This document shows positions 5,918 through 21,796 of a stretch of 64,000 bases of DNA, in pieces. The position numbers were made by a program, and so were the translations under genes. The stretch is from assembly GCA_963664825.1 (NCBI GenBank), contig OY761614.1, forward strand, positions 1,856,001 to 1,920,000, written 5' to 3'. Under the pieces are notes generated by a model. The model was not told the origin of the DNA. It did no database searches and was given only the letters and a program-made list of their open reading frames with translations. Within the stretch, counting starts at the first letter, position 1; every line of letters begins with the position of its first letter. The DNA comes from an uncultured Holophaga sp. Lineage in GTDB: Bacteria; Acidobacteriota; Holophagae; Holophagales; Holophagaceae.

Positions 5918-7075
5918 TCAGCCCGGATCGGGCAAGCGGAAGTAGAATTGGGTGCCCTGCTCCGGTGTGGAGCTGAAGCCCACCTCTCCACCGAGGATGT
6001 TTTCCCCCAGGAGCTTCATGCTGTAGGTGCCGAGCCCCCGGCCCCGGGGGCCCTTGGTGCTGAAGGAACGCAGGAAGATCCGACTGGCGATGTGGGGGGG
6101 GATGCAGCCTGGATTGTGGACGGTGAAGCGATGGCCTCCGTCTTCGCGCTCGACACGAACTCCCACACTCCCGCCAGAGGGTGTGGCCTCCAGGGCGTTG
6201 ATGACCATGTTGAGGAGAATGCGGTGAAGGAGGCGCCCATCGCTGAGAATCCGGAGCCCTGGCGCTGGTGGTTGGATCTTCAGTTCGCGCTGGGCACTGC
6301 ATTGATGGTTGAGCACGGTGATCCTCAGTTCCTCGAAGAGGTCGGCAACGAAGAGATCCTGTGGGGTCACGCTCAGTTCCCCTCGCTCCGCCTGGAGCAG
6401 AAGGCGTTGGGCCTGCACCTCCTCGGTCAAGCAATCGGTGATGCTCATGATTTTCCTGGCCGCGTCGAGGCGGTCGCTGGTCGGCGACTGCAGGAGTTCG
6501 CTCCAGTTCCGAAGGCCCTGGAGGGTGTTCATCAGATCGTGGAGGAAGATCTGTTCCAGGGCCTCACGGCGCTTCTGGGAGCTGATGTCCCGCATGATGA
6601 GCACCAGAAAATCATGACCGTAGATTTTAAGCGGTGTGGCGCGCACCCAAAATTCGCGGGCATTCCATTTACCGTCTTGGCTGGAGCCCAGGAGGCATTC
6701 CCCCTCGGTAGGGCCGTCCTGCTGCTGGGCTGCCAGGATGGTCAGCAATGCGCCACAGCGCGTACATGCATTAGAAGTGCCGCATCCCTCCGGGCCTTCC
6801 TCCACATGAACGCACTTGAATACTTCCCCGGGGCGAAGGCCGCGGAAGCATGTGGGATCCTCGGCGGCCAGGGCGCGGAAAAGGGCGGCGTTGGCTGCCA
6901 GGATCTGCCTTTGCTCGTTAAGGATGAGCGCATAGCTCTCCACGGCATCGAGTACCGCGCTGACTACGGGGTTCTCCAGGCAGGCCGTGATTTCCCGATC
7001 CAGCTCCGCCCCTTCCAACCGTCCTACAAGGGAACAATGTATGGGTAGTGAAGTTTCAATGCCTTCTGGATCCAC
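5918..7075 (-). CDS. Sensor histidine kinase with Cys-rich PAS-like input
   Basis: IFLHDLMN H-box, NMVINALEA N-box, FSTKG..RGLGTY; Cys cluster in N-terminal half. Confidence 0.8.
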   Translation of the reverse strand: MDPEGIETSLPIHCSLVGRLEGAELDREITACLENPVVSAVLDAVESYALILNEQRQILAANAALFRALAAEDPTCFRGLRPGEVFKCVHVEEGPEGCGTSNACTRCGALLTILAAQQQDGPTEGECLLGSSQDGKWNAREFWVRATPLKIYGHDFLVLIMRDISSQKRREALEQIFLHDLMNTLQGLRNWSELLQSPTSDRLDAARKIMSITDCLTEEVQAQRLLLQAERGELSVTPQDLFVADLFEELRITVLNHQCSAQRELKIQPPAPGLRILSDGRLLHRILLNMVINALEATPSGGSVGVRVEREDGGHRFTVHNPGCIPPHIASRIFLRSFSTKGPRGRGLGTYSMKLLGENILGGEVGFSSTPEQGTQFYFRLPDPG

Positions 7076-7172: not shown

Positions 7173-7952
7173 TCAAGTCAATAGGATCTGCCAGCCCAGC
7201 CTCAGGATCAGGGCACTGACCACGACGATGAAGACGATGCGCACCCAGGCGCTGCCGCGGCTGAGGGCCGTGCGCGCTCCCAGATAGCCTCCCAGGCCAT
7301 TGCCCACGGCCATTGATAGGGCCACGGTGGGAACCCAGCTCCCCTGGGAGAGGAAGAGCACGAGGGAGGCGATATTGGAGGCCCAGTTCACGCTCTTGGC
7401 CAGGGCCGAGGCCCGCAGGAAATCAAATCCCAGCACCGTCACGAAGAGAAAGATCAGGATGCTGCCGGTGCCCGGGCCGAAGAGCCCATCGTAGAAGCCC
7501 AGGGCGAAGGCGATCACCAGGGCCAGCATCCGCTGGTGGGAGAGGCCGAACCTCGGCGCGTGAAGCCTTCCGGCGTCGGGCTTCAGGAGCGTCCAGGCCA
7601 GCATGACGATCATCAGGGCCACCATGGCGGGCCGCAGGTAGGGATCGAAGCGCCCCGAGAGGTAGTAGGCCAGCGCCACACCCAGGGCGGCGCCGGCCAT
7701 GGCGGCCAGGACCGGTCCCACCATCTCCTGCCAGCGCAGGATGCGCGCCCGCAGGAACTGCGAGGCTGCGAAGGTCGTGCCCGTGCAGGCCACCACCTTG
7801 TTGGTGCCGGAGATGACGGGCCAGGGGTGCCCGGGCAGGCCGATGAGGAGGGCGGGAATCGTGATGAGGCCGCCGCCCCCCACCACCGCATCCACAAAGC
7901 CTGCCAACAGGGCGGCCAGCACGAGGAAGGCGAGGGTCAGGGGGCTGGGCAT
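7173..7952 (-). CDS. TauE/SafE (TSUP) family membrane transporter
   Basis: AGFVDAVVGGGGLITIP, GTNK, GFYDGLFGPGTG motifs; multiple TM helices. Confidence 0.9.
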   Translation of the reverse strand: MPSPLTLAFLVLAALLAGFVDAVVGGGGLITIPALLIGLPGHPWPVISGTNKVVACTGTTFAASQFLRARILRWQEMVGPVLAAMAGAALGVALAYYLSGRFDPYLRPAMVALMIVMLAWTLLKPDAGRLHAPRFGLSHQRMLALVIAFALGFYDGLFGPGTGSILIFLFVTVLGFDFLRASALAKSVNWASNIASLVLFLSQGSWVPTVALSMAVGNGLGGYLGARTALSRGSAWVRIVFIVVVSALILRLGWQILLT

Positions 7953-7987
7953 GGAAAGATTCTATCGTTCGGCCGGGCATTCCGCCG

Positions 7988-8186
7988 CTGTCTCTGATCC
8001 ACGCCGCTGCAAGAGCCCAAGGCTGCACCGCAGCCGGTGACGACCCACCCCTGTCTCTGATCCACGCCGCTGCAAGAGCCGAAGGCTGCATTGCAGCCTG
8101 TGACGACCCACCCCTGTCTCTGATCCACGCCGATGCAAGAGCCCAAGGCTGCATCGCAGCCTTGGGCTCAGCATCGGCGGGATCAG
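7988..8186. repeat. 63-bp tandem repeat (about 3 copies) ending in a long hairpin at the frr stop
   Basis: CTGTCTCTGATCCACGCCG..GCAAGAGCC.AAGGCTGCA..GCAGCC starts at 7988, 8051 and 8114. Confidence 0.9.
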
Positions 8187-10513: not shown

Positions 10514-10590
10514 GCGCCCATAGCTCAGGTGGATAGAGCATCAGCCTTCTAAGCTGGTGGTCGCTGGTTCGAGTCCAGCTGGGCGCACCA
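10514..10590 (+). tRNA. tRNA-Arg(TCT); integration site
   Basis: Acceptor GCGCCCA/TGGGCGC, anticodon arm TCAGC-CTTCTAA-GCTGG, GTTCGAGT, CCA. Confidence 0.95.
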
Positions 10591-10592
10591 AT
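10546..10592 (+). repeat. att core, copy within the intact tRNA
   Basis: CTTCTAAGCTGGTGGTCGCTGGTTCGAGTCCAGCTGGGCGCACCAAT identical to 19621-19667. Confidence 0.95.
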
Positions 10593-10632
10593 GAAAAAGC
10601 CCTGAAACGTAACGGTTTCGGGGCTTTTTGTT
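10593..10632 (+). terminator. Intrinsic terminator supplied by the element after tRNA-Arg
   Basis: AAAAAGCCCTGAAAC...GTTTCGGGGCTTTTT. Confidence 0.75.
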
Positions 10633-10931
10633 GTGGATTTAACGAGGGCGTTTTTGGGGCCTTGGGTGCCTCGTCATCACACCGTCATCACGCCCCCGAC
10701 CAATGCCGACCAATGCCCCCCGATGGCCGGTGCCAGATTCCGGTCATCCGGGTGAGGGGGATGGAAGGGGCCAGCCCTAATGGCTACCCCCCCGATGACC
10801 GCAATCAGATTTCGGTCACACCCCCAAGGGGTGGGGATCCGATCCACCCCCCCAAGGTACCGTCATGACGGTGGCCCCTTGGGTGTGCTCGTCTCGATGA
10901 CGAGTCCAGGGTCGTAATGGCCCCTGAGGGC

Positions 10932-11150
10932 TCACCCCACCAGGAACCACCACGCGGCCCAGCTCCCGCCGGTCAGCAGGGCCAGGGGCACGACACACCC
11001 CGCCATCCGGGCGGCCTTCCTCTGGCGTCCGCTTCGGGACAGGGGTATGCCGATTTGGCGCGATAGCCGTGCCTGAGCCTGAGAGACACCAAGGGCCCGC
11101 CTCCAGGAGAAGGACAGGCCAGGGATGCCGGTGCCACGCTTGCGAGCCAT
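10932..11150 (-). CDS. Small basic protein with C-terminal TM segment (MGE-associated hypothetical)
   Basis: GIPGLSFSWRRALGVSQAQARLSRQIGIPLSRSGRQRK plus hydrophobic tail; AGGAG RBS. Confidence 0.6.
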   Translation of the reverse strand: MARKRGTGIPGLSFSWRRALGVSQAQARLSRQIGIPLSRSGRQRKAARMAGCVVPLALLTGGSWAAWWFLVG

Positions 11151-11250
11151 GAGGGCTCCTGTGAAGGGATGAGACAGCCTACCCCGGAAACAAAATGAGG
11201 GGGCGACAGTGAATGTCATCCCCCTCTATATGCCCGGTTCCCCGTGGCAG

Positions 11251-11649
11251 CTACCACAAGTTCGCCCTGGCCATCTTTGGTTTCAGCACCTTCTTCTTCC
11301 GCGGCGGCTTCCGGGTCCGAGGCCGGGGAAGGTCTTCTTTGACCCCGCCCGTTAGGGCCTTCTGGAGGCTCTCCAGGAGCTCCAGGGCCCTGAAGTAGTT
11401 CGGGCCATAGGTTGGTGATTTCGTGAATTTCGGGGTGTCGTCATCCCCCCCTGTGTCGCCTGTGTCGCAGGTGCGATTGAATCTCACATACCAGGGGAGA
11501 ACTTCCGTCCAGACGTAATAACACCCAGGCCCCTCGCCATGCCGCGGCAAGCCGTAGTAGTGCCAACGGTGGATTGTCCGCTCTGTCCGCTGGAAAATGA
11601 GGGCCAGCTCGGCTTGTTTAATACAGTTAAAGTTGATCGTTAGCATCAT
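11251..11649 (-). CDS. Terminase-small-subunit (Nu1)-like winged HTH protein
   Basis: KQAELALIFQRTERTIHRWHYYGLP...YVWTEVLPWY resembles the gpNu1 DNA-binding domain; start uncertain. Confidence 0.5.
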   Translation of the reverse strand: MMLTINFNCIKQAELALIFQRTERTIHRWHYYGLPRHGEGPGCYYVWTEVLPWYVRFNRTCDTGDTGGDDDTPKFTKSPTYGPNYFRALELLESLQKALTGGVKEDLPRPRTRKPPRKKKVLKPKMARANLW

Positions 11650-11933
11650 ATTTATCCTATGCGAATACGACATGCTTTAAAAATTCAGAGCTAGGTGAAT
11701 GGGGAGCTATGCAGCGATACCCTCCCGCGGCACCCTGGAAGGACCCGCGATCATATAGAGATAGAGGATGGCGATAACCACCACGGTTCCTCATCCACCT
11801 GACGACGACACAGTTTTTCCGTATGTAACTAGGCAAGAGCGGAGGCTGGCGCGATACCCGCCTGGAGATTTCAAAAAACAGGACCCGTGAATTCCGGTCC
11901 CCTTGCCGAGGCATGACGCCGGGAGAGGGGAGG

Positions 11934-12239
11934 TCATAACGGCCTCACCATCCCCGCCCTTCGTCCCGCCTCAGCCCTGGGAAGGCCTGCCAGGTGCTCC
12001 AGGATCGCGGCGCGTTCTTCTCGGAGGTATCGGGCTTCCTCGGGATCGGCGGCGATGCACAGGGCCTCCAGGGTCAGATCAGTGAGGGAGCCAAGAATGG
12101 GGTCTTTCCAGAGCTTCAGCAGTTCTGCCAGATCGGACGGAAGGGGGCCGTTGCTCCGATATCGGAGACGGCCACCCTCGGCCCAGAGGATTACCCCAAG
12201 GTCCCGGACGTAGCGAACCACCTCCGAGGCGTGGGTCAT
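11934..12239 (-). CDS. Small protein with TubC N-terminal docking-like domain, coupled to primase
   Basis: GVILWAEGGRLRY..LAELLK.WK..IL and EERAAILEH..GLPRAEA; ATGA overlap with primase stop. Confidence 0.6.
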   Translation of the reverse strand: MTHASEVVRYVRDLGVILWAEGGRLRYRSNGPLPSDLAELLKLWKDPILGSLTDLTLEALCIAADPEEARYLREERAAILEHLAGLPRAEAGRRAGMVRPL

Positions 12240-14728
12240 GTGATTTCACCCTCGAAGAGGCATTCCCTCCCAGATCCCCCCCCTGAATCCGCAACTGCCG
12301 CTACTTCCAATAATGGTGCGGGTTTAGGGGTCGCGGATTGGTTGCGTGTCGCCGATTGATCCGCAACTGAGCCCGGATTGGTTGCGCCTGAATCCGCAAC
12401 CGCAACTGTTCCGCAACCGCTAGAACCGCATGAATGCTCATAAGTTGCGGGTTGCGGATCTTTGGGGGGGGTGACGGGGGCAAGGTATCGAGAGAACACA
12501 TCATCGAATTGGGACTTCTGATATCCCTTCCTGGTGACACCGTTAATTTTGAAATCCTTCGAACTGATTTCAAATTCTCCCAACCGCTTGGAAAGTTGGC
12601 GTGGGGATAGTTCCTTGCCAAAGGCGTAGCTTGCCCATGGCTTCGTGTCGTCAGAGGTCAAAGCACTCAGAAGATCGGCAGTCGGAATTCTGTCCACATT
12701 TTTGGCGTCAAAGATTTCCTTGATGTCCGAGAGAAGTTCCGTGGATGTCGAAACGGGGTCGTGCTCGGCTCCCGAGATATGCAGCGCAGCGGCTCGAGCG
12801 AGGTTGGGCCACTCGCCATCGGCGAGGTCTGCAATCGCAAGCAATGGCTCCCAGTTGTCCTGGGCACGGTCGTTCAGCTCCTCGGGGAGGTTGGGGCGGG
12901 CCTGCCCGATGGATGGGCCTGCATCCTCGGCAAACCTCGCCAGCTTGGATGCCAATTGAGAGAATGCTTTTGGGTCTGCATGTCGCAACCGCTGGCATTT
13001 CTCCGCGGGTAGCTTGCGCCGAAGGGTCAGCACAATGGCCCTGTCCATGAGAGTGCCTGCAAGGTGTCCGATGCCACTGATGGCCTTTGCGCCCCAGGTT
13101 GAGAACTGCCGAGGTTCGTGGTCGTCTCCCACTGTTCGGATTACGAAAGCGCTTTGTCGCGTGTGCCCCGAATTGATGACACCTCGCAATTCTTCGTTTT
13201 CCTTCAGGAAGGAATCAGCCTCATCGATTAGCAGAGTAGGGCTGTGGGCCTCAATTACTCGATAGACAGCCGCGGGCGAAATGTTCGAGGCCACCAGAGG
13301 ACGGAAGGACAGGCGACCGATCACGTCCAGCAGTTGAGACTTCCCACACCGCTTTTCAGGTGCGGTGATAACCGCCAAGGGCGCTACCTGAAGGTAGTCG
13401 ATACACCAGGTGAACGCGACCCAGAGGGCGACTGCAATAGACGTGCTTGTGTCGCAAATTATGAAACGGTTTACCGTAGCCCGGATATCGTCTAGCAGGG
13501 TAGCGATGTCCACAGGATCGCCCCAGGGCTCTACCTCTGGGAACATCGCAGCCTTCCCTGCATCCACCTGGTGGTCCTTCTGTGACCCAGCAACGGCTTT
13601 GTCGAGCGCCGTGGCTCTGACGCCCAAGCGCTTCGCTTCGATGACCCGGATCTGTTCGTATTCCATTCTCGGCATTGCAGCAAACCTTGCCACAGCATCG
13701 AGAATTTGCTCGGGTTCCGCATTCGTTGGGGAGGTCTGCGAGCCAGGAGAGGATGCCGCGGTCCTCAACAGGTGCCCCCGGTCCTGGCACTTCGGGGCAG
13801 CGTCTTTCACCTTCTTCCGCAGCTCTTCCAGGCTCCAGGGCGGCTTACACCGTGGGTTATAGCGATCCAGTAGCAGAGACAGGGCCTCGTCTTCTGAGAG
13901 ATCGAAGCCGTCGATCAGCTTCAAAGCATCGTTGAATGTCTTGGTGCCCCCTTCAGCATTTTCGCCTTCCCCGGCGATGGAACCGGGGATGTAATCCAGA
14001 TATCGCCCCGCCCGTTCCAGCACCTCTGCACGGTCCAGGGAGGGGGTGAATCGGATTACATCCCCCTCTGGCTTGCTCTTCTTCGGTGGAATAGGCGGGA
14101 ACGCGGCCCGGATTTCGTCCCGTGTGTAGCGTGGTCCATCGGCTGTCAGCAGCTCTACCGGCTGAGGTTCGGCCTTCCGGTGCATGAAGCCTGGCACCCG
14201 AAGCACCCGTTCCACGGTGCAGGCGGCCTTGTCAGCACCGAAGAGTGCAAGCCCATGCTGAATGGCCTTCAATTCCAATTCGTGCTCACCCCGCCGGGCC
14301 TCATCGGCGCATGGCATGGGGGCTATGGCTAGCCAGTAGAGGTGCCACCCGCCGGGCGTCTTGACCACCATGGAGGGGGCCAGGGGCAACCGTGGAAGGT
14401 CGAAAGTTTCACGGGCGTCCTTCGTATCGAGGTCAGCATGCCATCCCCTGAGGAGCTGGATATTCGCCTTCTTCCGGCCCTGGCCATCGGTTTGATTGAC
14501 GGTCACGAAAACACCCGCGCCGGAATGGTTCAGCCGTTCCAGTTCGGGGGCGGCCTCATCGATAGATTGGGACCAGTGCTTTGCAAGTTCGGGGGCCTTC
14601 CGTGTTTTGTCCTCATCAAAGGTCTGCCAGCGCTCTGGGTTGGTCCAGGCATCGTCTTGGCTGCACTGATTCAGGCAAGCCAGAAAGGGGATAGCAGAGC
14701 CCACGAGGCGCTCTCGGAGGTCGATCAT
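12236..14728 (-). CDS. Satellite primase/replication protein (RepB-like primase, PriCT-like, P-loop/DUF3631)
   Basis: GVFVTVN..ADLD, TPGGWHLYW, RVLRVPGFMH; APEKRCGKS Walker A, LLIDEAD; NDRAQDNWEPLLAIAD. Confidence 0.85.
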   Translation of the reverse strand: MIDLRERLVGSAIPFLACLNQCSQDDAWTNPERWQTFDEDKTRKAPELAKHWSQSIDEAAPELERLNHSGAGVFVTVNQTDGQGRKKANIQLLRGWHADLDTKDARETFDLPRLPLAPSMVVKTPGGWHLYWLAIAPMPCADEARRGEHELELKAIQHGLALFGADKAACTVERVLRVPGFMHRKAEPQPVELLTADGPRYTRDEIRAAFPPIPPKKSKPEGDVIRFTPSLDRAEVLERAGRYLDYIPGSIAGEGENAEGGTKTFNDALKLIDGFDLSEDEALSLLLDRYNPRCKPPWSLEELRKKVKDAAPKCQDRGHLLRTAASSPGSQTSPTNAEPEQILDAVARFAAMPRMEYEQIRVIEAKRLGVRATALDKAVAGSQKDHQVDAGKAAMFPEVEPWGDPVDIATLLDDIRATVNRFIICDTSTSIAVALWVAFTWCIDYLQVAPLAVITAPEKRCGKSQLLDVIGRLSFRPLVASNISPAAVYRVIEAHSPTLLIDEADSFLKENEELRGVINSGHTRQSAFVIRTVGDDHEPRQFSTWGAKAISGIGHLAGTLMDRAIVLTLRRKLPAEKCQRLRHADPKAFSQLASKLARFAEDAGPSIGQARPNLPEELNDRAQDNWEPLLAIADLADGEWPNLARAAALHISGAEHDPVSTSTELLSDIKEIFDAKNVDRIPTADLLSALTSDDTKPWASYAFGKELSPRQLSKRLGEFEISSKDFKINGVTRKGYQKSQFDDVFSRYLAPVTPPKDPQPATYEHSCGSSGCGTVAVADSGATNPGSVADQSATRNQSATPKPAPLLEVAAVADSGGGSGRECLFEGEIT
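12290..12460. repeat. CCGCAAC/GTTGCG iteron-like cluster in primase 3' end (putative origin)
   Basis: Many short copies in both orientations, giving a low-complexity protein tail (SATN/VAD). Confidence 0.65.
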
Positions 14729-14925
14729 TCGCACCCCCCGATGATCCCGCGCTCATTCAGGTAGGCACCTGCCACCCCTGCCAGCAGGTTGAAGTCATCG
14801 GTGCGCAGCTCAAGGCGCTGCATCAAGGCCTCGGGACTTGGGAGGGATTCGAGAGCCTTCATGTTGTGGAATTCTTCGAGCACCAGCGAGGCCGCTACAG
14901 CCGAACAAACCGCGGCGGGGGTCAT
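14725..14925 (-). CDS. Hypothetical protein (satellite operon)
   Basis: ATGA-coupled at both ends. Confidence 0.5.
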   Translation of the reverse strand: MTPAAVCSAVAASLVLEEFHNMKALESLPSPEALMQRLELRTDDFNLLAGVAGAYLNERGIIGGCE

Positions 14926-15242
14926 TGGGCGTTTCCCCCTGGCCACGGGAAAAACGGCGCTGGGAAGCATCCGGGTAGACCCTGCATGTGCACCCGATCA
15001 GGGGCGGCCTTCTTGAGAGCCTCGGCAAGATCGCGCCCCATGGGCGAAGCCAAGGATGCTTCGTTGATCCACACCCCGCCCTTGCCGTCGAAATCCATCG
15101 TGAAGATGGCCATCGGGAGGATGGACAAGGGGGCTTCAAGGTAGTGGCCCCAGGGGGCCGTTTCGGCAAACTCCAGGAAGCGTTGGATCAGGGCTTTGCG
15201 TGTCCTGGGGAATTTGAGCATATAGACGGAGGGATCACTCAT
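14922..15242 (-). CDS. Hypothetical protein (satellite operon)
   Basis: 106 aa ORF translationally coupled to neighbours. Confidence 0.55.
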   Translation of the reverse strand: MSDPSVYMLKFPRTRKALIQRFLEFAETAPWGHYLEAPLSILPMAIFTMDFDGKGGVWINEASLASPMGRDLAEALKKAAPDRVHMQGLPGCFPAPFFPWPGGNAQ

Positions 15243-15346
15243 TCGTCACCTTGCGCGAATTCTTCCAGCGCCAAGGTGCTTCCCGTTTCCGGTATGCTTG
15301 GGGCCAGCGTGGGCACGCTGATTTTTCTCGAGGGGGTCTGAGACAT
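15239..15346 (-). CDS. Very small hypothetical protein (35 aa)
   Basis: ATG directly after the AlpA-like stop; stop overlaps next ATG; below ORF-track cutoff. Confidence 0.35.
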   Translation of the reverse strand: MSQTPSRKISVPTLAPSIPETGSTLALEEFAQGDE

Positions 15347-15577
15347 TCAGGCCCCCTTCTCGGTGCGGCTCTCGCACCATGCCTGAAGGTCCGAGAGACG
15401 GTATCGAACGAGTGACCCGCATTTCACCCAGGCGGGGCCGTTGGTGCGCTTGCACCTCCAATCGATTAGGGTCAGGGGGCTGATGGCCAAAAAGGCGGCG
15501 GCCGCTTTGGTATCCATCAATCCATCAAGCGGGTGGGGTTCCGCGTGGGGTGTGGGATTTAGATCGGGTTGGGCCAT
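15347..15577 (-). CDS. AlpA/excisionase-like HTH protein
   Basis: LMDTKAAAAFLAISPLTLIDWR..GPAWVKCGSLVRYRLSDLQAW; GGAGG RBS. Confidence 0.85.
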   Translation of the reverse strand: MAQPDLNPTPHAEPHPLDGLMDTKAAAAFLAISPLTLIDWRCKRTNGPAWVKCGSLVRYRLSDLQAWCESRTEKGA

Positions 15578-15713
15578 GTAGCCTCCAGAGAAGGGCCAAG
15601 CGGGCTTGCTTGGGTCCTTCTCTGGAGGATCAGGTCTGTGCTGGGGTATAGAAAAAACGCAGAAAAGCCCCCATGACGGGGGCGTGTTTTCTGCATGAAT
15701 CGAGTTGATGCCC

Positions 15714-16445
15714 TCAGTCTTGGGCCCGCGCTCCGGCCTCTCGGAATTGCCCATCGGAGGGCTTTTCGCCCGTGGCGGCTTCATGGATGAGGCGGGCCAA
15801 ACGCACTCGCTTTGTGGGTTCCCACTCATGGGCCTCCATCCATTTTTTGCATTTCTTAAGAAGCCAATCCTGGGAGGTTTCCCCTAGCAGCACGTCATCA
15901 AGGGTCTTCCGGCCCAATGCCTTCGCCTTCTTTCTCATCCCGGACGCCTTGCGTCCTGCCCATGCAGACAGGGCTTGGGTGCTCTCCTGCCAGAGCCCAG
16001 GGCCTACAAATTCCGTGAAATGTTCCCCTGAGGTCACTGGGTAGCAGTTCACGAATTCCCCCTCATCCATCGGCGGCAACATTTCGCCACCAGCACGCGA
16101 GAACAGGGCCTTGTCCTCCGCGCTGAAGGCTCTATCCAAGACTTTTCGGGCCCCTGGGCTCAGGTGATTGAGGCGATTGTGGAGGGCCGCGGCACAGTCT
16201 CGGAGGACTTCCAGCTCCTCGGCAACGGCAGCGACACGGCCCGCGTTGCGCTCCGACAACATCATGTCGTAATCCCTCACCAGGGATTCCAGCTCCCGGC
16301 GGGCTTTCGCTTGATCACCAGGGACCAAGATCGGCCATGCCTTCACTAGGCCGATAGCTTCGTCAATCAACGCGTCCCGGCGGAGGCCCCACCGTTCTAT
16401 TCGCTCGATGGCTTCTTGCCCAAGTTCAGGCGGTAGCCAAACCAT
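15714..16445 (-). CDS. Hypothetical protein (243 aa) upstream of alpA-like gene
   Basis: GGAGGT RBS before ATG; coding-like composition; no recognised motif. Confidence 0.6.
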   Translation of the reverse strand: MVWLPPELGQEAIERIERWGLRRDALIDEAIGLVKAWPILVPGDQAKARRELESLVRDYDMMLSERNAGRVAAVAEELEVLRDCAAALHNRLNHLSPGARKVLDRAFSAEDKALFSRAGGEMLPPMDEGEFVNCYPVTSGEHFTEFVGPGLWQESTQALSAWAGRKASGMRKKAKALGRKTLDDVLLGETSQDWLLKKCKKWMEAHEWEPTKRVRLARLIHEAATGEKPSDGQFREAGARAQD

Positions 16446-16466
16446 TCACACCTCCCACCCGGTGCA

Positions 16467-16539
16467 TTCCCGCAAAAGCAAAAGGGGCGCGGCGTTCCGG
16501 TGCGGGAACCGGCTTTCGGGAGCTACCCTAGCCGTGCCG
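16467..16539 (-). ncRNA. Candidate structured cis-regulatory RNA (multi-stem junction) in 5' leader
   Basis: Minus strand GGCACGGC..GGG-TAGCT-CCC-GAAAG-CCGGT-TCCCGC-ACCGG..GCCGCGCC; loop complementary to downstream TGCGGGAA. Confidence 0.45.
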
Positions 16540-16548
16540 ATGGACAGT

Positions 16549-16812
16549 CTACCTTTGTGCTTCCGTCACCGTCTGGTGGAAGGCGATTTCGGAGTATTCC
16601 TCAATCTCCCCCGCGAGGCTATCAAGGCACCCCTGGAAGGCCTTGGCCGTTTGACTGGTGAATGGGGCCCCTTGTGCATACGGCTCCAGGAGGTGAGACA
16701 CCCCCTGCACCTTGCGTTGAATATCTGAGAACGATTCCGCCATGCCATCGGCAAAGTCGAAGGGCGGGATAGGCATGGTTTCAGCGGTTGCAGCAGTCGC
16801 AGCGTGGTTCAC
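16549..16812 (-). CDS. Hypothetical protein (87 aa)
   Basis: GTG start overlapping upstream stop; AAGGAG RBS. Confidence 0.5.
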   Translation of the reverse strand: MNHAATAATAETMPIPPFDFADGMAESFSDIQRKVQGVSHLLEPYAQGAPFTSQTAKAFQGCLDSLAGEIEEYSEIAFHQTVTEAQR

Positions 16813-17195
16813 AGATTCTCCTTCGAGGAAGGGCGCGTGGCCCGGTTGATTTCGTGAGAGACCATCACCAGGGCTTGGCCCCAGGCGCGGCGGAGGGCGC
16901 GAGCGGCGGCGCGGGGGTCCTCCTGGGCCTCCAGGAAATGGGCAGCTTCCTGGGCTATTTCTTGGACCACCGGGGGCAGCTTGGGCAGTGGATCGGGCGG
17001 CACCTGGCCAGCCAAGGCCACACGAATCAGGTCATCCACCACACGCCACACCGGCATCCCGGCGGCCTCAGCATGGGCCTCCAGGATGGAAGCGGCCTCT
17101 GGGCTCAAGTCCAGGCGCATCCTTGCCACCGGGCCACGCTGGGGCCTCCCGCCCCCCTTTCCTTGTCCCACTCCTGGATTCTTGGCCGTCACCAT
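16809..17195 (-). CDS. Ribbon-helix-helix-like DNA-binding protein
   Basis: GGRP followed by RMRLDLSPEAASILEAHAEAAGMPVWRVVDDLIR (beta-alpha-alpha pattern); GAGGTG RBS. Confidence 0.6.
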   Translation of the reverse strand: MVTAKNPGVGQGKGGGRPQRGPVARMRLDLSPEAASILEAHAEAAGMPVWRVVDDLIRVALAGQVPPDPLPKLPPVVQEIAQEAAHFLEAQEDPRAAARALRRAWGQALVMVSHEINRATRPSSKENL

Positions 17196-17264
17196 GGCTC
17201 ACCTCTGCCCAAGAGGATGCTCTCGCGCGCGCGAGGAATCAAGAACGTTTTTGGGGCCCGAATA

Positions 17265-17292
17265 GCTTTCGATAACGTCCATTATGTAACTC
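17265..17292 (+). other. dif-like XerC/XerD site
   Basis: GCTTTCGATAA-CGTCCA-TTATGTAACTC fits 11-6-11 dif architecture with the conserved ATAA/TTATGT core. Confidence 0.55.
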
Positions 17293-17469
17293 AGAACTGC
17301 TCGTAAGTCTAACCATTTCAATGCTGAAATTTCAGCCATGGAATAATCATGTAGTGGGAAGCCTCCGGAGTTTTCGCCCTTTTCGGCGAAAACCTCAAAG
17401 TCCCTGTGCTCAAAAAGTCGGGCACGGGCGAGAGGATGACATTGACTGTCGGGCAGCATCCGACAACAG

Positions 17470-17620
17470 GTGCTCCCCCGCGCGTGAGGGTGGAAGGGTT
17501 TTCCGGAATATTCCGGGAAACTCCACCGGGGTGCTCCCCCGCGCGTGAGGGTGGAAGGGGGGTTATTCCGATTAACACCCCTGGAGGCTGGGTGCTCCCC
17601 CGCGCGTGAGGGTGGAAGGG
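17470..17620 (+). CRISPR. Orphan CRISPR-like mini-array (3 identical 29-bp repeats, 2 unique 32-bp spacers), no cas genes in window
   Basis: GTGCTCCCCCGCGCGTGAGGGTGGAAGGG at 17470, 17531 and 17592 (61-bp period); resembles type I-E repeats but with a weakened hairpin. Confidence 0.55.
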
Positions 17621-17717
17621 GGTCGCGTTTCAAACGCGACCCTTGGCAATGGAGGGTCGGATTCGAAATCCAACCCCCTCCAGTTCGGACTTCTCGATTC
17701 CAAATCGGAAAGTGCGG

Positions 17718-17804
17718 GCTCTCGGCTACCAATCCTCGAACCGGACTCAGATCATCAGCCACATTCCGGAGGAGTGGAAGGGTAGCATTCGGATTGCCAC
17801 CCTC
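17718..17804 (+). pseudogene. Bro-N antirepressor gene fragment
   Basis: In-frame ALGYQSSNRTQIISHIPEEWKGSIRIATL resembles the Bro-N ALGY...HVPEEWKG..I.T[L/P] segment; no start, stop shortly after. Confidence 0.6.
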
Positions 17805-17959
17805 TGGAAGGGGTGAACATTTTGGACCCCCCTTTGCAGGGAACCTCAGAGATATCTCCGGGATGTGCAACCGTACTCATTTGCTCACCCCCCCCAGCGC
17901 AGGGAGACCAAGCCCGGCGGGGTTCTTTCCAGATTCGGAAAGAACCTCGAGGCCTCCAG

Positions 17960-18065
17960 GAAAGGGACAGTTGGGACATCTCTTCCAGTTCTCAAGAAAA
18001 GACTGTCCCACGGCAAACCCTTGCCACCACTATCTAAGGGACTAAAGGGACTAAAGGGACAAGAA
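17960..18065. repeat. GGGAC iteron-like cluster (second origin-like segment)
   Basis: GGGAC at 17964, 17973, 18038, 18047, 18056; inverted GTCCC at 18005; 9-bp phasing. Confidence 0.6.
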
Positions 18066-18109
18066 AGAGATATACCCCCCCTAAGTTTCCCTTCAACCGG
18101 GGCGAGACT

Positions 18110-19450
18110 TCAGGCCCCGGCCTTCTTTCTGGCCTTAGCCTGGGCCTTCCGGCGGGCCTCCAGTTCCTTCTCTGGATCGATCTTGCCGGTCAGGATGCCT
18201 TCGATCCGGGCCCCGATCTTCTCCGCTGCATCGTGGAGGGGTTCCGCGGCGGTCCTGGTGTAAATGTCAGTCACCGATGCTTCCGCATGGCCTAGCAGCT
18301 CCCCCACGAAGCCCTTGAGGCCCAGGTCAGCTCCCACACTGGCGAAGGTGCGCCGGAGATCATGCCAGCCGGGATCTTCTTCTGTAGGTTCACCCTGGGT
18401 TGCCAGCTTTGCGGCCTCCCGGATGCGCTCCCATGGCCCCTGGAGGCCTATGATTGGCTTCCATCCGATTATCTTTCCCTCCTTCCCCTTCTTGTCTTTG
18501 AGTGGGAGGCCGGGCACCACGTAAGGGCATCCAAGGGTAGGTGTGAGGGCCCGGATGTGAGCCAGGAGGGCATTGCATAGATGCACCACTCGAGTCTTGC
18601 CGGTCTTCTTGCCCGTCTTGTGGAAGGCGGGCGGGATGTGGATTTCCCCGGCGTCCAGGTCGATCCACTCCCAGCGCAGGGCCTGAATTTCACCCTTCCT
18701 CATGCCAGCCAGGAGGGCCAGCCGCACGGCAAGGATGTACTTCGGCGCTTCCTCCGAGGCCTTCAGGGTGAGGCCCAGGGCCTTCAGCTCCATATCTGTG
18801 AGGCGTATGGTTCGCTTCATTTCCGGGGCGCGTTTCTTCACCACGGAAACGGGATTGGAGCCCGTAGGCCTCAGCCCCCATTCTTCAGCCCGGTCCAGCA
18901 TCGTGTGGAATACTGCCCTCACGATGTTGGCAATCCTGGGGGTTTTTCTCAGCTTGAAGAGTAAGGCCGATACCTCAGGCGGTCCCACCAGGGCCAGGGG
19001 CATCTTCCCCAGCGTGGGGAGAAGGTCTTTCTTGATCAGCCGGGTAGACTCCTTCGCCCATTTTGGGGAAAGGGTTGGCGTGTGTTCAATGAAGTAGCGG
19101 TCCGCCAGGTCTGAGACGGTGAACGTGCCCCGCTTGGCCGCAGCAGCCGCGGCGCGGGCGTCTGCCTTGGCTTGGCCTGGATCGGTCCCGGCGTTGATGA
19201 GCGTCCAAATGGGGCTATGGGCTATACCGGCCGCGTCCGGGGTCATGGCGGGGAAGGTCCCCATGGTGTGGATCTTCTGCCTTCCATTGAATCGGTAGCG
19301 CAGCACGAAAGATTTCGCACCGGCCTTGGTCACCTGGAGGCAGAGCCCCTTGTATCCCGTCACTGGATAGAAGCGCGTCCCGGCAGGGTCAGCCACCAGG
19401 GCGTTCACATCCGTCTTGGTCAATCGGATGGCCTTCTCGCTGCTCCTCAT
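18110..19450 (-). CDS. int: P4-like tyrosine integrase with N-terminal arm-binding domain
   Basis: GLCLQVTKAGAKSFVLRYR..MGTFP arm domain; AGMRKGEI, HDLRRT, LLGH, DIY catalytic residues; next to att. Confidence 0.95.
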   Translation of the reverse strand: MRSSEKAIRLTKTDVNALVADPAGTRFYPVTGYKGLCLQVTKAGAKSFVLRYRFNGRQKIHTMGTFPAMTPDAAGIAHSPIWTLINAGTDPGQAKADARAAAAAAKRGTFTVSDLADRYFIEHTPTLSPKWAKESTRLIKKDLLPTLGKMPLALVGPPEVSALLFKLRKTPRIANIVRAVFHTMLDRAEEWGLRPTGSNPVSVVKKRAPEMKRTIRLTDMELKALGLTLKASEEAPKYILAVRLALLAGMRKGEIQALRWEWIDLDAGEIHIPPAFHKTGKKTGKTRVVHLCNALLAHIRALTPTLGCPYVVPGLPLKDKKGKEGKIIGWKPIIGLQGPWERIREAAKLATQGEPTEEDPGWHDLRRTFASVGADLGLKGFVGELLGHAEASVTDIYTRTAAEPLHDAAEKIGARIEGILTGKIDPEKELEARRKAQAKARKKAGA

Positions 19451-19620
19451 GGGCCCCTCGAAAATGTGATGACAGGCGTTCCGTCATCACACCATCATCA
19501 CACTTTCGGCCAATGCGCACCAATTAGTTCATGTATGGATCAACCTCATCCATGGCTAAGTTGCTTTGTTTCCAATACAGCCCAATTTGTGCCCATGCGC
19601 TACAAATGGCCTATACCAGA

Positions 19621-19667
19621 CTTCTAAGCTGGTGGTCGCTGGTTCGAGTCCAGCTGGGCGCACCAAT
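19621..19667 (+). repeat. att core, displaced tRNA-Arg 3' half
   Basis: Identical to 10546-10592; lacks the tRNA 5' half. Confidence 0.95.
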
Positions 19668-20295
19668 ATTTTTGAGGCCTCGGTGCTGGACTCGGACCAG
19701 CGAATGGCAGCCGGCCCGCGAGCGCCCCGTTGTGACAGCCTGGGGGGCTGTCGCAACGGATCAAGGCGCGAGTGGTCGCCGGCAACGTTCGAGTCCAGGG
19801 ACCGGAGTATCCCCAGGTGATTCCCTCCTCGCCGGGCCCCGACTTCGCGGGCTCCAGCGGAGCCCGTTGCGTCACCCGGCGGTCGGGAGGACTCGGACAA
19901 GCGAGAAACATCGGTGGCCGGGCTGATTCGGGTCTTCGGCCCTCACCCCTTTGGGGCCGCATTGGCGGTGGCGATGCGGTCCTATCCGCTTCACGGATGG
20001 TGGCCACAGGTGGAGGCAGCCCGCTTCTACGCCGACGCCATTCTTGACTTCTTCCGGTCAGGGATGGGGATCTTGTGGGTCTTCGCCGTCGTTATGGTCG
20101 GCTGGCCGTACTTCCTTTGGTGGCCACTGTGTGATGAAGCACGTCTGAGACCCGCTGAAAGACACTGGACTGGGCACTCCGGCATAGAAAGTAGCTTGGC
20201 GATGAAAGGGGGTTCTCCAGGACCGACCTGACCACAAAAATATCCTTGCAACTCCGAAAAAACGTGTAAACCTATGGGTTGACAAGGACGCCGGA

Positions 20296-20757
20296 ATGCC
20301 AAGTCACACACTCCCATGGATCACCGGGGGATCCCATTGTGAGATCCACTGGCTCTTTGAGGACAACAAATGGGACCCCAAGCCCTACTTTGACGAACAC
20401 CAGTATCCAGGCGCTCAGGTTCGCCTGGAACGCATCGTCAGGCTTTTTGCAGCTTCCGGTCGTCTTCCACGTGACAAAGGACATTGGCGAACAGGTCCAG
20501 CCCCGCAGAACAAACTCTACGAGTTCAAGGACATCTCCAGTGGTCTTCGGCTTCTGGCTTTTAGCTTCACTCAACTTTCTGGCGTCTGCTGGTTCATCGT
20601 GGCGCTTGGGGCAACAAAAGACAGGGGAGACATCACACCTGAAGCTGCGGATCGGGCGATACAAAGACGTCAACGATTCCTTGATGCCAATCATCCTAAG
20701 GGTTTGCCCGAGTCACGATTGCAACCGACCGGCACACAGCCCAGAAAGAGGCGATGA
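20296..20757 (+). CDS. RelE/HigB (Gp49-like) toxin of a putative TAC system
   Basis: KLYEFK..SGLRLLAF..FIVALGATK..P...DRA pattern; first gene, ahead of the HTH gene. Confidence 0.65.
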   Translation: MPSHTLPWITGGSHCEIHWLFEDNKWDPKPYFDEHQYPGAQVRLERIVRLFAASGRLPRDKGHWRTGPAPQNKLYEFKDISSGLRLLAFSFTQLSGVCWFIVALGATKDRGDITPEAADRAIQRRQRFLDANHPKGLPESRLQPTGTQPRKRR

Positions 20758-20758
20758 G

Positions 20759-21220
20759 ATGACTAAGTCCATGAAAATCCATGACAGTGCCATCGACAGG
20801 TTTGAGCAGGCCATCCACGAAGAACAGGACCGGCTTTCCCAAGATTTCTTCCAATCGCTCCAGACTCGAATGGAAGAGCTGAACATGTCCCAGTCCGACA
20901 TGGCTTTCACCCTTGGCAAGAGCCGAGCCTATGTGTCCAAGCTCTTTTCCAAAGGCCAGAACCTGACCATCAAGACGATGGTTGAACTCGCCCAATCCTT
21001 GGACATGAAGGTGGCGATCTCTACCAGGGCCATTTGGCTCGAAGCTATGTCGGTCGCAAAAACGACGCCCTTGCAGTGCAAGGGCTGGACTCCGAATCGA
21101 ACCCTCTCATTGGCGCCCACCCAAGTCAGAAGAACAGGGGCCAAGGGCGACTCCACAAAAGTGTCTTGGGGCGATCACACACAGCAAGCCAAGTCCCCTC
21201 TGCTTCAACAAACAAGCTAG
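20759..21220 (+). CDS. HigA-like XRE HTH antitoxin with long C-terminal extension
   Basis: MEELNMSQSDMAFTLGKSRAYVSKLFSKGQNLTIKTMVELAQSLD, then a tail of about 60 aa. Confidence 0.8.
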   Translation: MTKSMKIHDSAIDRFEQAIHEEQDRLSQDFFQSLQTRMEELNMSQSDMAFTLGKSRAYVSKLFSKGQNLTIKTMVELAQSLDMKVAISTRAIWLEAMSVAKTTPLQCKGWTPNRTLSLAPTQVRRTGAKGDSTKVSWGDHTQQAKSPLLQQTS

Positions 21221-21229
21221 GTGAGAACC

Positions 21230-21796
21230 ATGTTCAAGCTCAACTTCCCTGATACCTCTGCCAAGGAATTCAATCTCGCTGCTACCGTCGCCAAGGTTGT
21301 GGAGTTGACCGATCTAAAAATGGTCGACGGAGAATTCGGCCCCACCCCTCAGGTAGAGAAGAAGGCGAAATCGAAGTCCAAGGATGTGCCCTATGAATTT
21401 GGTTTCAGGTCTCGATTTGATGAAAAAGAAAACCGCCTTGAGGCAATGATCACCATTGAAGGCAGAGACATCCGCAACGCCACCGGTGAGGGCGCTGGCG
21501 GAACCGGCTTGCGGGTTAAGGCAACGTTCCTGTTGACCTACCAAGTGATGGTCGAGCCTCCACCTAAAGATGTCAGAGAAGCCTTTTTCACAGCCTTTGC
21601 TCAAGTCAATGGCCTCATGAATATTTGGCCTTACTACCGGGAGTTCGCTCACGAAGCGGCACGTCGCTTGGGTGTCCCTAACGTAATCGTTCCCCTCCTC
21701 CGCGTGGAGCCCAAACCTGAGCCTAAGGCTCCCCGTGGCCCTGTGAAAGAGAGGAACCCTAAGGCTCTGAGCACCAAGCGGGTTTCCAAAGGTTAA
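21230..21796 (+). CDS. SecB-like chaperone
   Basis: VKATFLLTY..AFAQVNGLMNIWPYYRE..RLGVPNVIVPLL resembles the SecB C-terminal signature (N...[W/F]PY.RE...R.G.P...P). Confidence 0.75.
   Translation: MFKLNFPDTSAKEFNLAATVAKVVELTDLKMVDGEFGPTPQVEKKAKSKSKDVPYEFGFRSRFDEKENRLEAMITIEGRDIRNATGEGAGGTGLRVKATFLLTYQVMVEPPPKDVREAFFTAFAQVNGLMNIWPYYREFAHEAARRLGVPNVIVPLLRVEPKPEPKAPRGPVKERNPKALSTKRVSKG

Follow-up and report, generated by a model that had tools for sequence, protein, structure and literature searches.

The satellite element and its cargo slot

The window (the whole stretch of 64,000 nucleotides that was analysed) contains a 9.1-kb element whose ends are a 47-bp exact repeat of the 3' part of a tRNA-Arg(TCT) gene. 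One att core lies in the tRNA gene itself (10546–10592, plus strand; tRNA 10514–10590) and its copy closes the right end (19621–19667, plus strand). The genes lie on the minus strand and include a tyrosine integrase (18110–19450), ORF128 (16809–17195), an excisionase-like HTH_17 gene (15347–15700; Pfam match below cut-off, phrog_66), a TubC_N gene, and a primase with RepB_primase and DUF3631 domains (12236–14734) that carries the element's own iteron-like repeats at its 3' end. A small HTH-like ORF common to relatives (11251–11673, minus strand), presumably small-terminase-like, belongs to no family found and has HTH look-alikes at 0.90–0.91. An int-alpA RNA-like motif at 16469–16538 (minus strand) scores 28.9 bits, below the Rfam gathering score of 35.8.

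None of the 11 element ORFs matches a structural phage family in Pfam or PHROGs, and several have no family at all. Because no structural phage gene was detected, the element looks like a PICI-type satellite; its tRNA integration, att repeats, integrase, excisionase, primase, and size are those of a phage satellite, in line with the setting proposed in a first-pass annotation of this DNA. No excision joint was seen among the public-run contigs examined, which show presence and not absence. Just outside the right att site, a lower-GC patch at 20279–21796 holds an HTH_3 gene and an ORF that we take to be SecB-like, perhaps together a toxin-antitoxin-chaperone module. A tandem array of ∼54-bp units lies at 7937–8174 (array-like at C1:1864051).

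ORF128, the first operon gene, is likely a ribbon-helix-helix regulator, with 55–86% identity in four relatives and ribbon-helix-helix look-alikes at 0.90 as a lead only; homologue searches returned few loci (1 weak, 6, 3, and 0). Next to it lies a conserved promoter-like box (17214–17242, minus strand) with a TTG-led hexamer, a 17-nt spacer, and an xAxxxT hexamer. Its spacer has a CG-repeat palindromic core, the same layout occurs in all 12 elements extracted, and a strict sigma-70 scan missed it. A 28-bp dif-like site follows at 17264–17291, where putative XerC and XerD arms surround a 6-bp centre as in dif and pdif sites; it is 24/27 identical to a host site that sits at the GC-skew maximum. 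Among satellites, the arms of this site are conserved and the central 6 nt are variable. The gap between ORF128 (17195) and the integrase stop (18110) is a slot of variable cargo, and here the cargo is an array of palindromic dyads.

A dense array of dyads

The first-pass annotation had described dense adjacent dyads at 17319–17895, and its 11 quoted motifs are all found at the exact coordinates. With a stringent definition of a dyad (9 or more of 11 positions paired), we found 9 in 17300–17960 against 0.79 ± 0.88 in dinucleotide shuffles, none of 500 of which reached 9; the runner-up among the 660-bp windows of the 3.47-Mb genome holds 7. With the definition relaxed to 8 of 10 pairs, the stretch holds 10 dyads and 18 genome windows have 11, so that its density is high but not unique.

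Two long ORFs of 223 and 166 aa span the array; they have no Pfam family and both run through the repeats described below, and we rejected them as real proteins. No PHROG matched at E < 0.1 in 19 frame segments of the array, no promoter or terminator was found inside it, and no Rfam match was found within it at E ≤ 5, including RNAs of the P4 CI, c4, or isrK kind.

The array extends past the end given earlier, with an AntA-type dyad at 17921–17946 followed by iteron-like short repeats (17955–18065) that are unlike the element's own; similar pieces lie beside the integrase in the G008 genome and at locus L125. A second, smaller cluster lies at the far end of the element (10720–10910), with 6 dyads against 1.58 ± 1.15 in shuffles (0/500). 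The first-pass account of the array's composition was thus incomplete, as it omitted this cluster, the 13th dyad, the foreign iteron-like repeats, the dif-like site, and three identical 29-bp repeats.

A palindrome inside antirepressor genes

Our library, drawn from viral contigs and the host family, comprises 187 distinct domains of the Bro-N, AntA, and Rha types, among them the best 80 of 580 viral Bro-N domains, the best 80 of 311 viral AntA domains, and 30 of 60 family Bro-N matches. In 166 of the 187 domains the best dyad is centred at codons 28–56, and at least 10 of 12 positions pair in 141 of 187 domains versus 13 of 185 downstream control stretches. The site is hypervariable: 61 different forms occur in the viral Bro-N domains, 29 in the viral AntA domains, and 20 in the viral Rha domains.

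The arms co-vary. Positions 4–7 of the Bro-N arms are paired in 66–71 of 75 sites versus 21–35 by column shuffling, and a formal count over 60 selected sites gave 84.6% of cells paired versus 66.8% (0/500 shuffles; slid controls 38–69%), counts that are inflated by kinship and by the picking of sites as best dyads. Among 1064 cells, 962 pairs are Watson-Crick, 16 are G-T, and 26 are A-C. Since G-T is not favoured over A-C, the symmetry appears to be that of double-stranded DNA rather than of an RNA hairpin.

In a Bro-N model (pLDDT 89), the site is predicted to encode strand 42–49, the first strand of a beta-hairpin (wing); a first fold, from four sequences, reached pLDDT 42 and was discarded. 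The modelled fold resembles the Mbp1 and DdrC DNA-binding domains at modest Z-scores of 5.8–6.7 (below 8). A Foldseek search with the model returned nothing at E ≤ 0.001, which counts against a role of the array as decoy, and sequence search found no solved structures of Bro-N or AntA relatives. The model makes it plausible that the palindrome serves as an operator and also encodes part of the protein's DNA-binding surface.

A possible precedent is a gene of phage HK022 with Rha-like and ANT domains, which has a short dyad at the matching position. Roi of HK022 reportedly binds a site within its own gene, as Clerget and Boccard are said to have found in 1996. The HK022 dyad has arms of only 5 bp, which counts against the precedent, and its equivalence to the Roi site is a candidate one. 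The likeness lies in a Rha-like and ANT regulator that reportedly binds within its own gene; the difference is that HK022 has one site in one phage's gene, whereas many sites lie here outside genes, in a satellite without such a gene.

Origin of the array units

Eight of the array's 16 units match library genes at 22–26 of 26 nt, at most 2.5 nt from the centre of the in-gene site, a level that 1 of 600 random genome dyads reaches (22 of 26). Three of the mapped units are of AntA, two of Bro-N, and three of Rha type. The remaining eight score 17–19 of 26, which is background, and two of these are flanks of mapped units.

From left to right, the first dyad (U1, 17323–17336) is at background (19/26); its left part overlaps a motif common to relatives, and the Rha label once given to it (LKFQP) was not confirmed. 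An AntA gene fragment on the minus strand follows at 17345–17430, formed by dyad U2 (23/26 at the site centre) and its upstream flank (the "U3" dyad), which matches an AntA gene of the G150 genome at 25/25; the AntA model scores 36.6 bits. Some 12 separate dyads had been counted earlier; those at 17370 and 17403 read as this single fragment. After U4 (17447–17465; 18/26, background) come the three 29-bp repeats at 17470, 17531, and 17592, with the 32-nt units S1 (AntA type, 22/26) and S2 (Bro-N type, 23/26) between them (17470–17620). S3, a Rha-type dyad at 17619–17646 (plus strand), matches a library site at 26/26 and gene 58 of Gordonia phage Apricot (Pfam Phage_pRha) at 28/28.

U5 (Rha or Bro-N type, 22/26) and U6 (Rha type, 23/26) are butt-joined at 17651–17716 (plus strand), followed by a Bro-N gene fragment of ∼29 codons (17716–17803, plus strand; 22.3 bits) that ends in dyad U8 (24/26). 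The imperfect dyads U9–U11 (17804–17900) are at background (18–19/26), with the best match of U9 falling at codon 42 of a Bro-N gene, and U12, an AntA-type dyad on the minus strand, closes the series at 17914–17952 (23/26; AntA model 35.6 bits). Judged from the flanks, U2 and U12 lie on the minus strand and S2, S3, U6, and U8 on the plus strand. Of the dyads listed in the first-pass annotation, those at 17323, 17403, 17447, 17808, and 17849 do not rise above background in the library.

When three covariance models (AntA, Bro-N, and Rha) were built without the array, array units came top in the window. Across this genome, the AntA and Bro-N models give matches in the array alone (50 candidates per genome scored). 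Within the second cluster, the dyad at ∼10828–10852 is of Bro-N type, with a best match of 21/26 lying 2.5 nt from the Bro-N site and a Bro-N model score of 20.3 bits, third in the window. Four other units of that cluster have no mapping, one is borderline (20/26), and blastn against phages gave four weak matches, none in an antirepressor. A public run, X7, has another allele of the left-cluster Bro-N-type dyad at 10838–10854 (one contig, depth 3.1).

Blastn of the array against annotated phages gave 21 records, of which 15 carry an antirepressor or Rha-like annotation and 19 fall on just two units. We rejected a Gordonia or Lactobacillus donor: the 21 records represent two groups of phages, and 21/21 nt of the same dyad also occur in a Rha gene of the host family. 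Blastn of sub-regions gave, beyond Lactobacillus-type matches, only weak ones (E 5–8), one of them in a Gordonia antirepressor. Tblastn of the Bro-N fragment gave no match, and tblastn of the AntA fragment gave four records at E 8–9, one annotated as anti-repressor. An exact scan of viral contigs gave no match to S1 or S2, so no exact donor was found, which counts against the decoy reading. Accordingly, the earlier statement that the units come from many phages holds for three protein families and lacks an exact donor phage.

A single decayed Bro-network gene as the source was ruled out, since the same site is hit eight times, in three families, and on both strands, rather than in colinear order along one gene. 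The preference of units for antirepressor genes (8/16 versus 1/600 controls) likewise upholds the origin in phage regulators that had been proposed, and an origin of the units in the in-gene palindromes of Bro-N, AntA, and Rha genes is well supported by these sequence comparisons. In the host genome, neither an AntA nor a Rha gene was found, and Bro-N gave one divergent match; there is therefore no resident target at present, which also counts against the decoy reading.

The 29-bp repeats and CRISPR

The three identical 29-bp repeats account for ∼90 of the array's 580 bp and recur with a period of 61 (29 + 32). The same genome has a complete-looking type I-E cas operon (genes named from ORFs) with a 109-repeat array (G000:C1:461208–476300), and all 108 spacers of that array are 32 nt, giving the period seen in the satellite. 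Identical repeats with spacers of host length are thus present, as in a CRISPR mini-array, but the satellite repeat is only 19/29 identical to the host repeat and thus not near-identical. The promoter box of the satellite matches its repeat equally well (14–21 of 30 identical), and as a candidate Cas6e-type hairpin that repeat folds at −8.5/−10.0 versus −14.5 kcal/mol for the host repeat (z about −0.4). No copy within three mismatches occurs in 132 relatives, no exact copy occurs in viral contigs, and plasmids gave one weak unrelated match. S1 and S2 have no exact protospacer in viral contigs, the nearest genes matching at 22–23 of 26. The host array's spacers are not dyad-rich, as 3 of 108 reach 8 of 10 pairs.

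As far as they are described in the available part of PMC11656645, mini-arrays of mobile elements carry host-identical repeats. The satellite array shares with them few repeats, the 29 + 32 geometry, the lack of cas genes, units pointing to phages, and a type I-E host, and differs in that its repeat is not host-identical and has an apparently weak hairpin, most of its units are repeat-less, and all are one kind of palindrome. We did not adopt the CRISPR mini-array label, given the 19/29 repeat, its apparently weak fold, the lack of a near copy in relatives, and its likeness to the promoter box. From its sequence, the repeat could derive from a CRISPR repeat that decayed or from an operator box that was copied. 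A second small I-E-like repeat array, a more canonical mini-array, lies in another integrated element of this genome, beside a tRNA gene (G000:C1:2797580–2797730); its repeat resembles the host's more closely and has a folding energy of −13.7 kcal/mol.

Relatives and variants

Related satellites keep ORF128, the promoter-like box with its palindromic core, and the dif-like site, followed by variable cargo that may be a tail-like gene, other ORFs, or almost nothing. A dense array occurs in none of 17 related regions, so relatives spread without one, which counts against the decoy reading. No second AntA-type or Bro-N-type cluster was found in 132 family genomes (50 candidates per genome scored). 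Single dyads of antirepressor type do occur outside antirepressor genes, in G019, G008, G016, G086, and G091. Bro-N-model matches in relatives below ∼28 bits were discarded as mostly terminators or chance (10 of 29 loci inspected).

In the public run X2, which may share the window's sampling campaign, the element is identical over 10563–19650. Run X6 comes from another study; one of its contigs passes from the first repeat directly into S3, without S1 and S2 (single contig, depth 2.4). On another X6 contig, changes at 17928 and 17939 hit both members of one pair and keep the symmetry, while a further change at 17942 breaks one pair (depth <3; 66 further differences beyond those listed). Over the pieces listed, and if they belong to one element, X6 diverges at 11 of 530 nt in the array versus 16 of 271 in the neighbouring coding gene. 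Each being a single contig at depth <3, the X6 variants are hints. Comparison among homologous satellites, as the first-pass annotation had envisaged, thus gave a one-repeat form of the array in one contig, but no dense array in the 17 regions. No RNA data set is listed as containing the stretch.

Candidate functions of the array

The geometry of the repeats invites reading the array as a degenerate CRISPR mini-array, in which the host I-E Cascade would make guides against a site common to many phages and the repeat-less units would be relics. The 61-bp period and the I-E operon agree with this, as do the more canonical mini-array in a second integrated element and the X6 form, which would reflect gain or loss of whole repeat-unit blocks (one contig, depth 2.4). 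We nevertheless consider it improbable: the repeat departs from the host-identical ones of mini-arrays as described in the available part of PMC11656645, folds more weakly, is equally close to the promoter box, and is absent from relatives (within three mismatches) and, exactly, from viral contigs; six of the eight mapped units lack repeats on both sides; and no protospacer, hence no PAM, was found. Self-complementary spacers would also presumably make poor guides. A donor library is unlikely as well; here the cassettes would recombine into the antirepressor palindrome of a co-infecting phage and change wing and operator together. It would account for the natural flanks of up to ∼29 codons, the hypervariability of the site in nature, the variant alleles of two units in other samples, and the dif-like site and integrase flanking the array, yet neither element nor host has a recipient gene, most flanks are <15 nt, and it is not obvious what the satellite would gain. 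The match of 28/28 to a Gordonia phage, moreover, could be convergence, because a symmetric site has few free positions.

The array lies upstream (80–700 bp) of the regulator-excisionase-primase operon's conserved promoter box, where it might act in cis as a multi-helper sensor on which helper antirepressors dock and switch on the adjacent operon. One site per specificity would suit such an OR-gate, but the box is kept in relatives without an array, the dif-like site lies between array and box, and a second dyad cluster sits at the element's far end, so we give this reading little credence. That the array is a by-product, a cargo slot in which recombination-prone palindromes piled up as functionless scars of phage DNA, we rate as quite improbable. 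Its confinement to one lineage, the iteron-like scraps in the slot, and the half of the units that are unassigned or imperfect would fit; all eight matches, however, centre on the same 23-bp site instead of spreading over genes, and X6 shows fewer changes in the array (11/530 nt) than in the neighbouring gene (16/271; pieces listed, if one element) and one symmetry-keeping double change. A role as antisense or small regulatory RNA directed at antirepressor mRNAs, in the manner of P4 CI or P1 c4 RNA, is very unlikely. Satellite Bro zones do hold immunity RNAs, according to the available part of PMC10111431, and transcripts reading through from the integrase could cover the array; against this stand the mixed orientation of the units, natural sites without G-U bias, and an array with no Rfam match at E ≤ 5 and no promoter or terminator inside.

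The reading we favour, tentatively and at slightly under even confidence, is that the array is a collection of borrowed double-stranded operators acting as decoys, which would titrate helper antirepressor and Rha proteins when the satellite replicates. At a fixed codon position, Bro-N, AntA, and Rha genes contain a DNA dyad whose arms co-vary; this dyad is predicted to encode the first wing strand of a winged-helix domain, and the protein would bind the dyad in its own gene and so limit its own synthesis. The satellite carries at least eight different such dyads, of three families and in both orientations. While integrated, it would offer one site per specificity, with little effect; after excision, many copies could lift the self-repression of whichever helper is present, and the over-expressed antirepressor or Rha protein would either induce the helper or impair it, to the advantage of the satellite. 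Helper proteins docked just upstream of the operon promoter might add a role in cis.

Strict symmetry, units in mixed orientation and centred on one site, and location in a cargo slot all fit protein-binding sites better than RNA guides. Among the four functions that the first-pass annotation had offered, decoys fit best and antisense RNAs worst, because of the mixed orientation and the lack of G-U bias. A decoy role gives no account of the exact 61-bp period, which counts against it.

A wider proposition, which we regard as possible yet doubtful, is that the palindrome read by Bro-N, AntA, and Rha proteins is at the same time the DNA that encodes their recognition strand, so that operator and specificity would shift together, and that satellites keep an updatable library of such self-coding operators with which they jam the lysis-lysogeny decisions of many unrelated phages. 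It would make the array a system of multi-phage interference that is non-coding and protein-free. Temperate phages very commonly carry antirepressor and Rha genes, and the targets of the N-terminal domains of these regulators are little known. The in-gene palindrome offers a predicted operator for each protein, readable from the gene, making the binding question directly testable, and the array shows that another element has collected precisely such sites. If the decoy bank is real, it would represent satellite-phage conflict without protein or guide RNA, invisible to annotation pipelines.

Comparison with known systems

Our literature search, which covered mainly open-access articles, found nothing on in-gene antirepressor palindromes or arrays of them. 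The Bro zone of Gram-negative PICIs and P4 eta, as covered in the available part of PMC10111431, holds Bro-network genes, CI RNA, seqA, and C4/isrK-type RNAs, and neither "dyad" nor "palindrom" occurs in that paper's main text. Like the array, it is a satellite region in the integrase-replication interval tied to the Bro network (Bro-N, AntA, Rha); it differs, on the same partial account, in having proteins and RNAs, whereas the array is non-coding, has no Rfam match, and consists of palindromic sites only.

P4-like satellites have hotspots of anti-phage cargo, and pdif modules are known. The slot described here resembles these in being variable, beside the integrase, and bounded by a dif-like site, but its cargo is non-coding and one dif-like site per element was seen. 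An internal dif-like site at the edge of the cargo slot, despite tRNA integration by the element's own integrase, also occurs at loci L054–L058, L062, L063, and L120–L125. The same slot in L054 (4628–7324, G008) is occupied by a coiled-coil, tape-measure-like ORF of 898 aa together with Bro-type dyads and an excisionase-like ORF. In L061 (∼5940–6050, G004), tandem palindromic repeats lie between the integrase and the dif-like site and one isolated 19-bp dyad is also present, and the slot of L058 (8000–9900, G024) carries an AT-rich three-gene cassette that by eye resembles a defence module.
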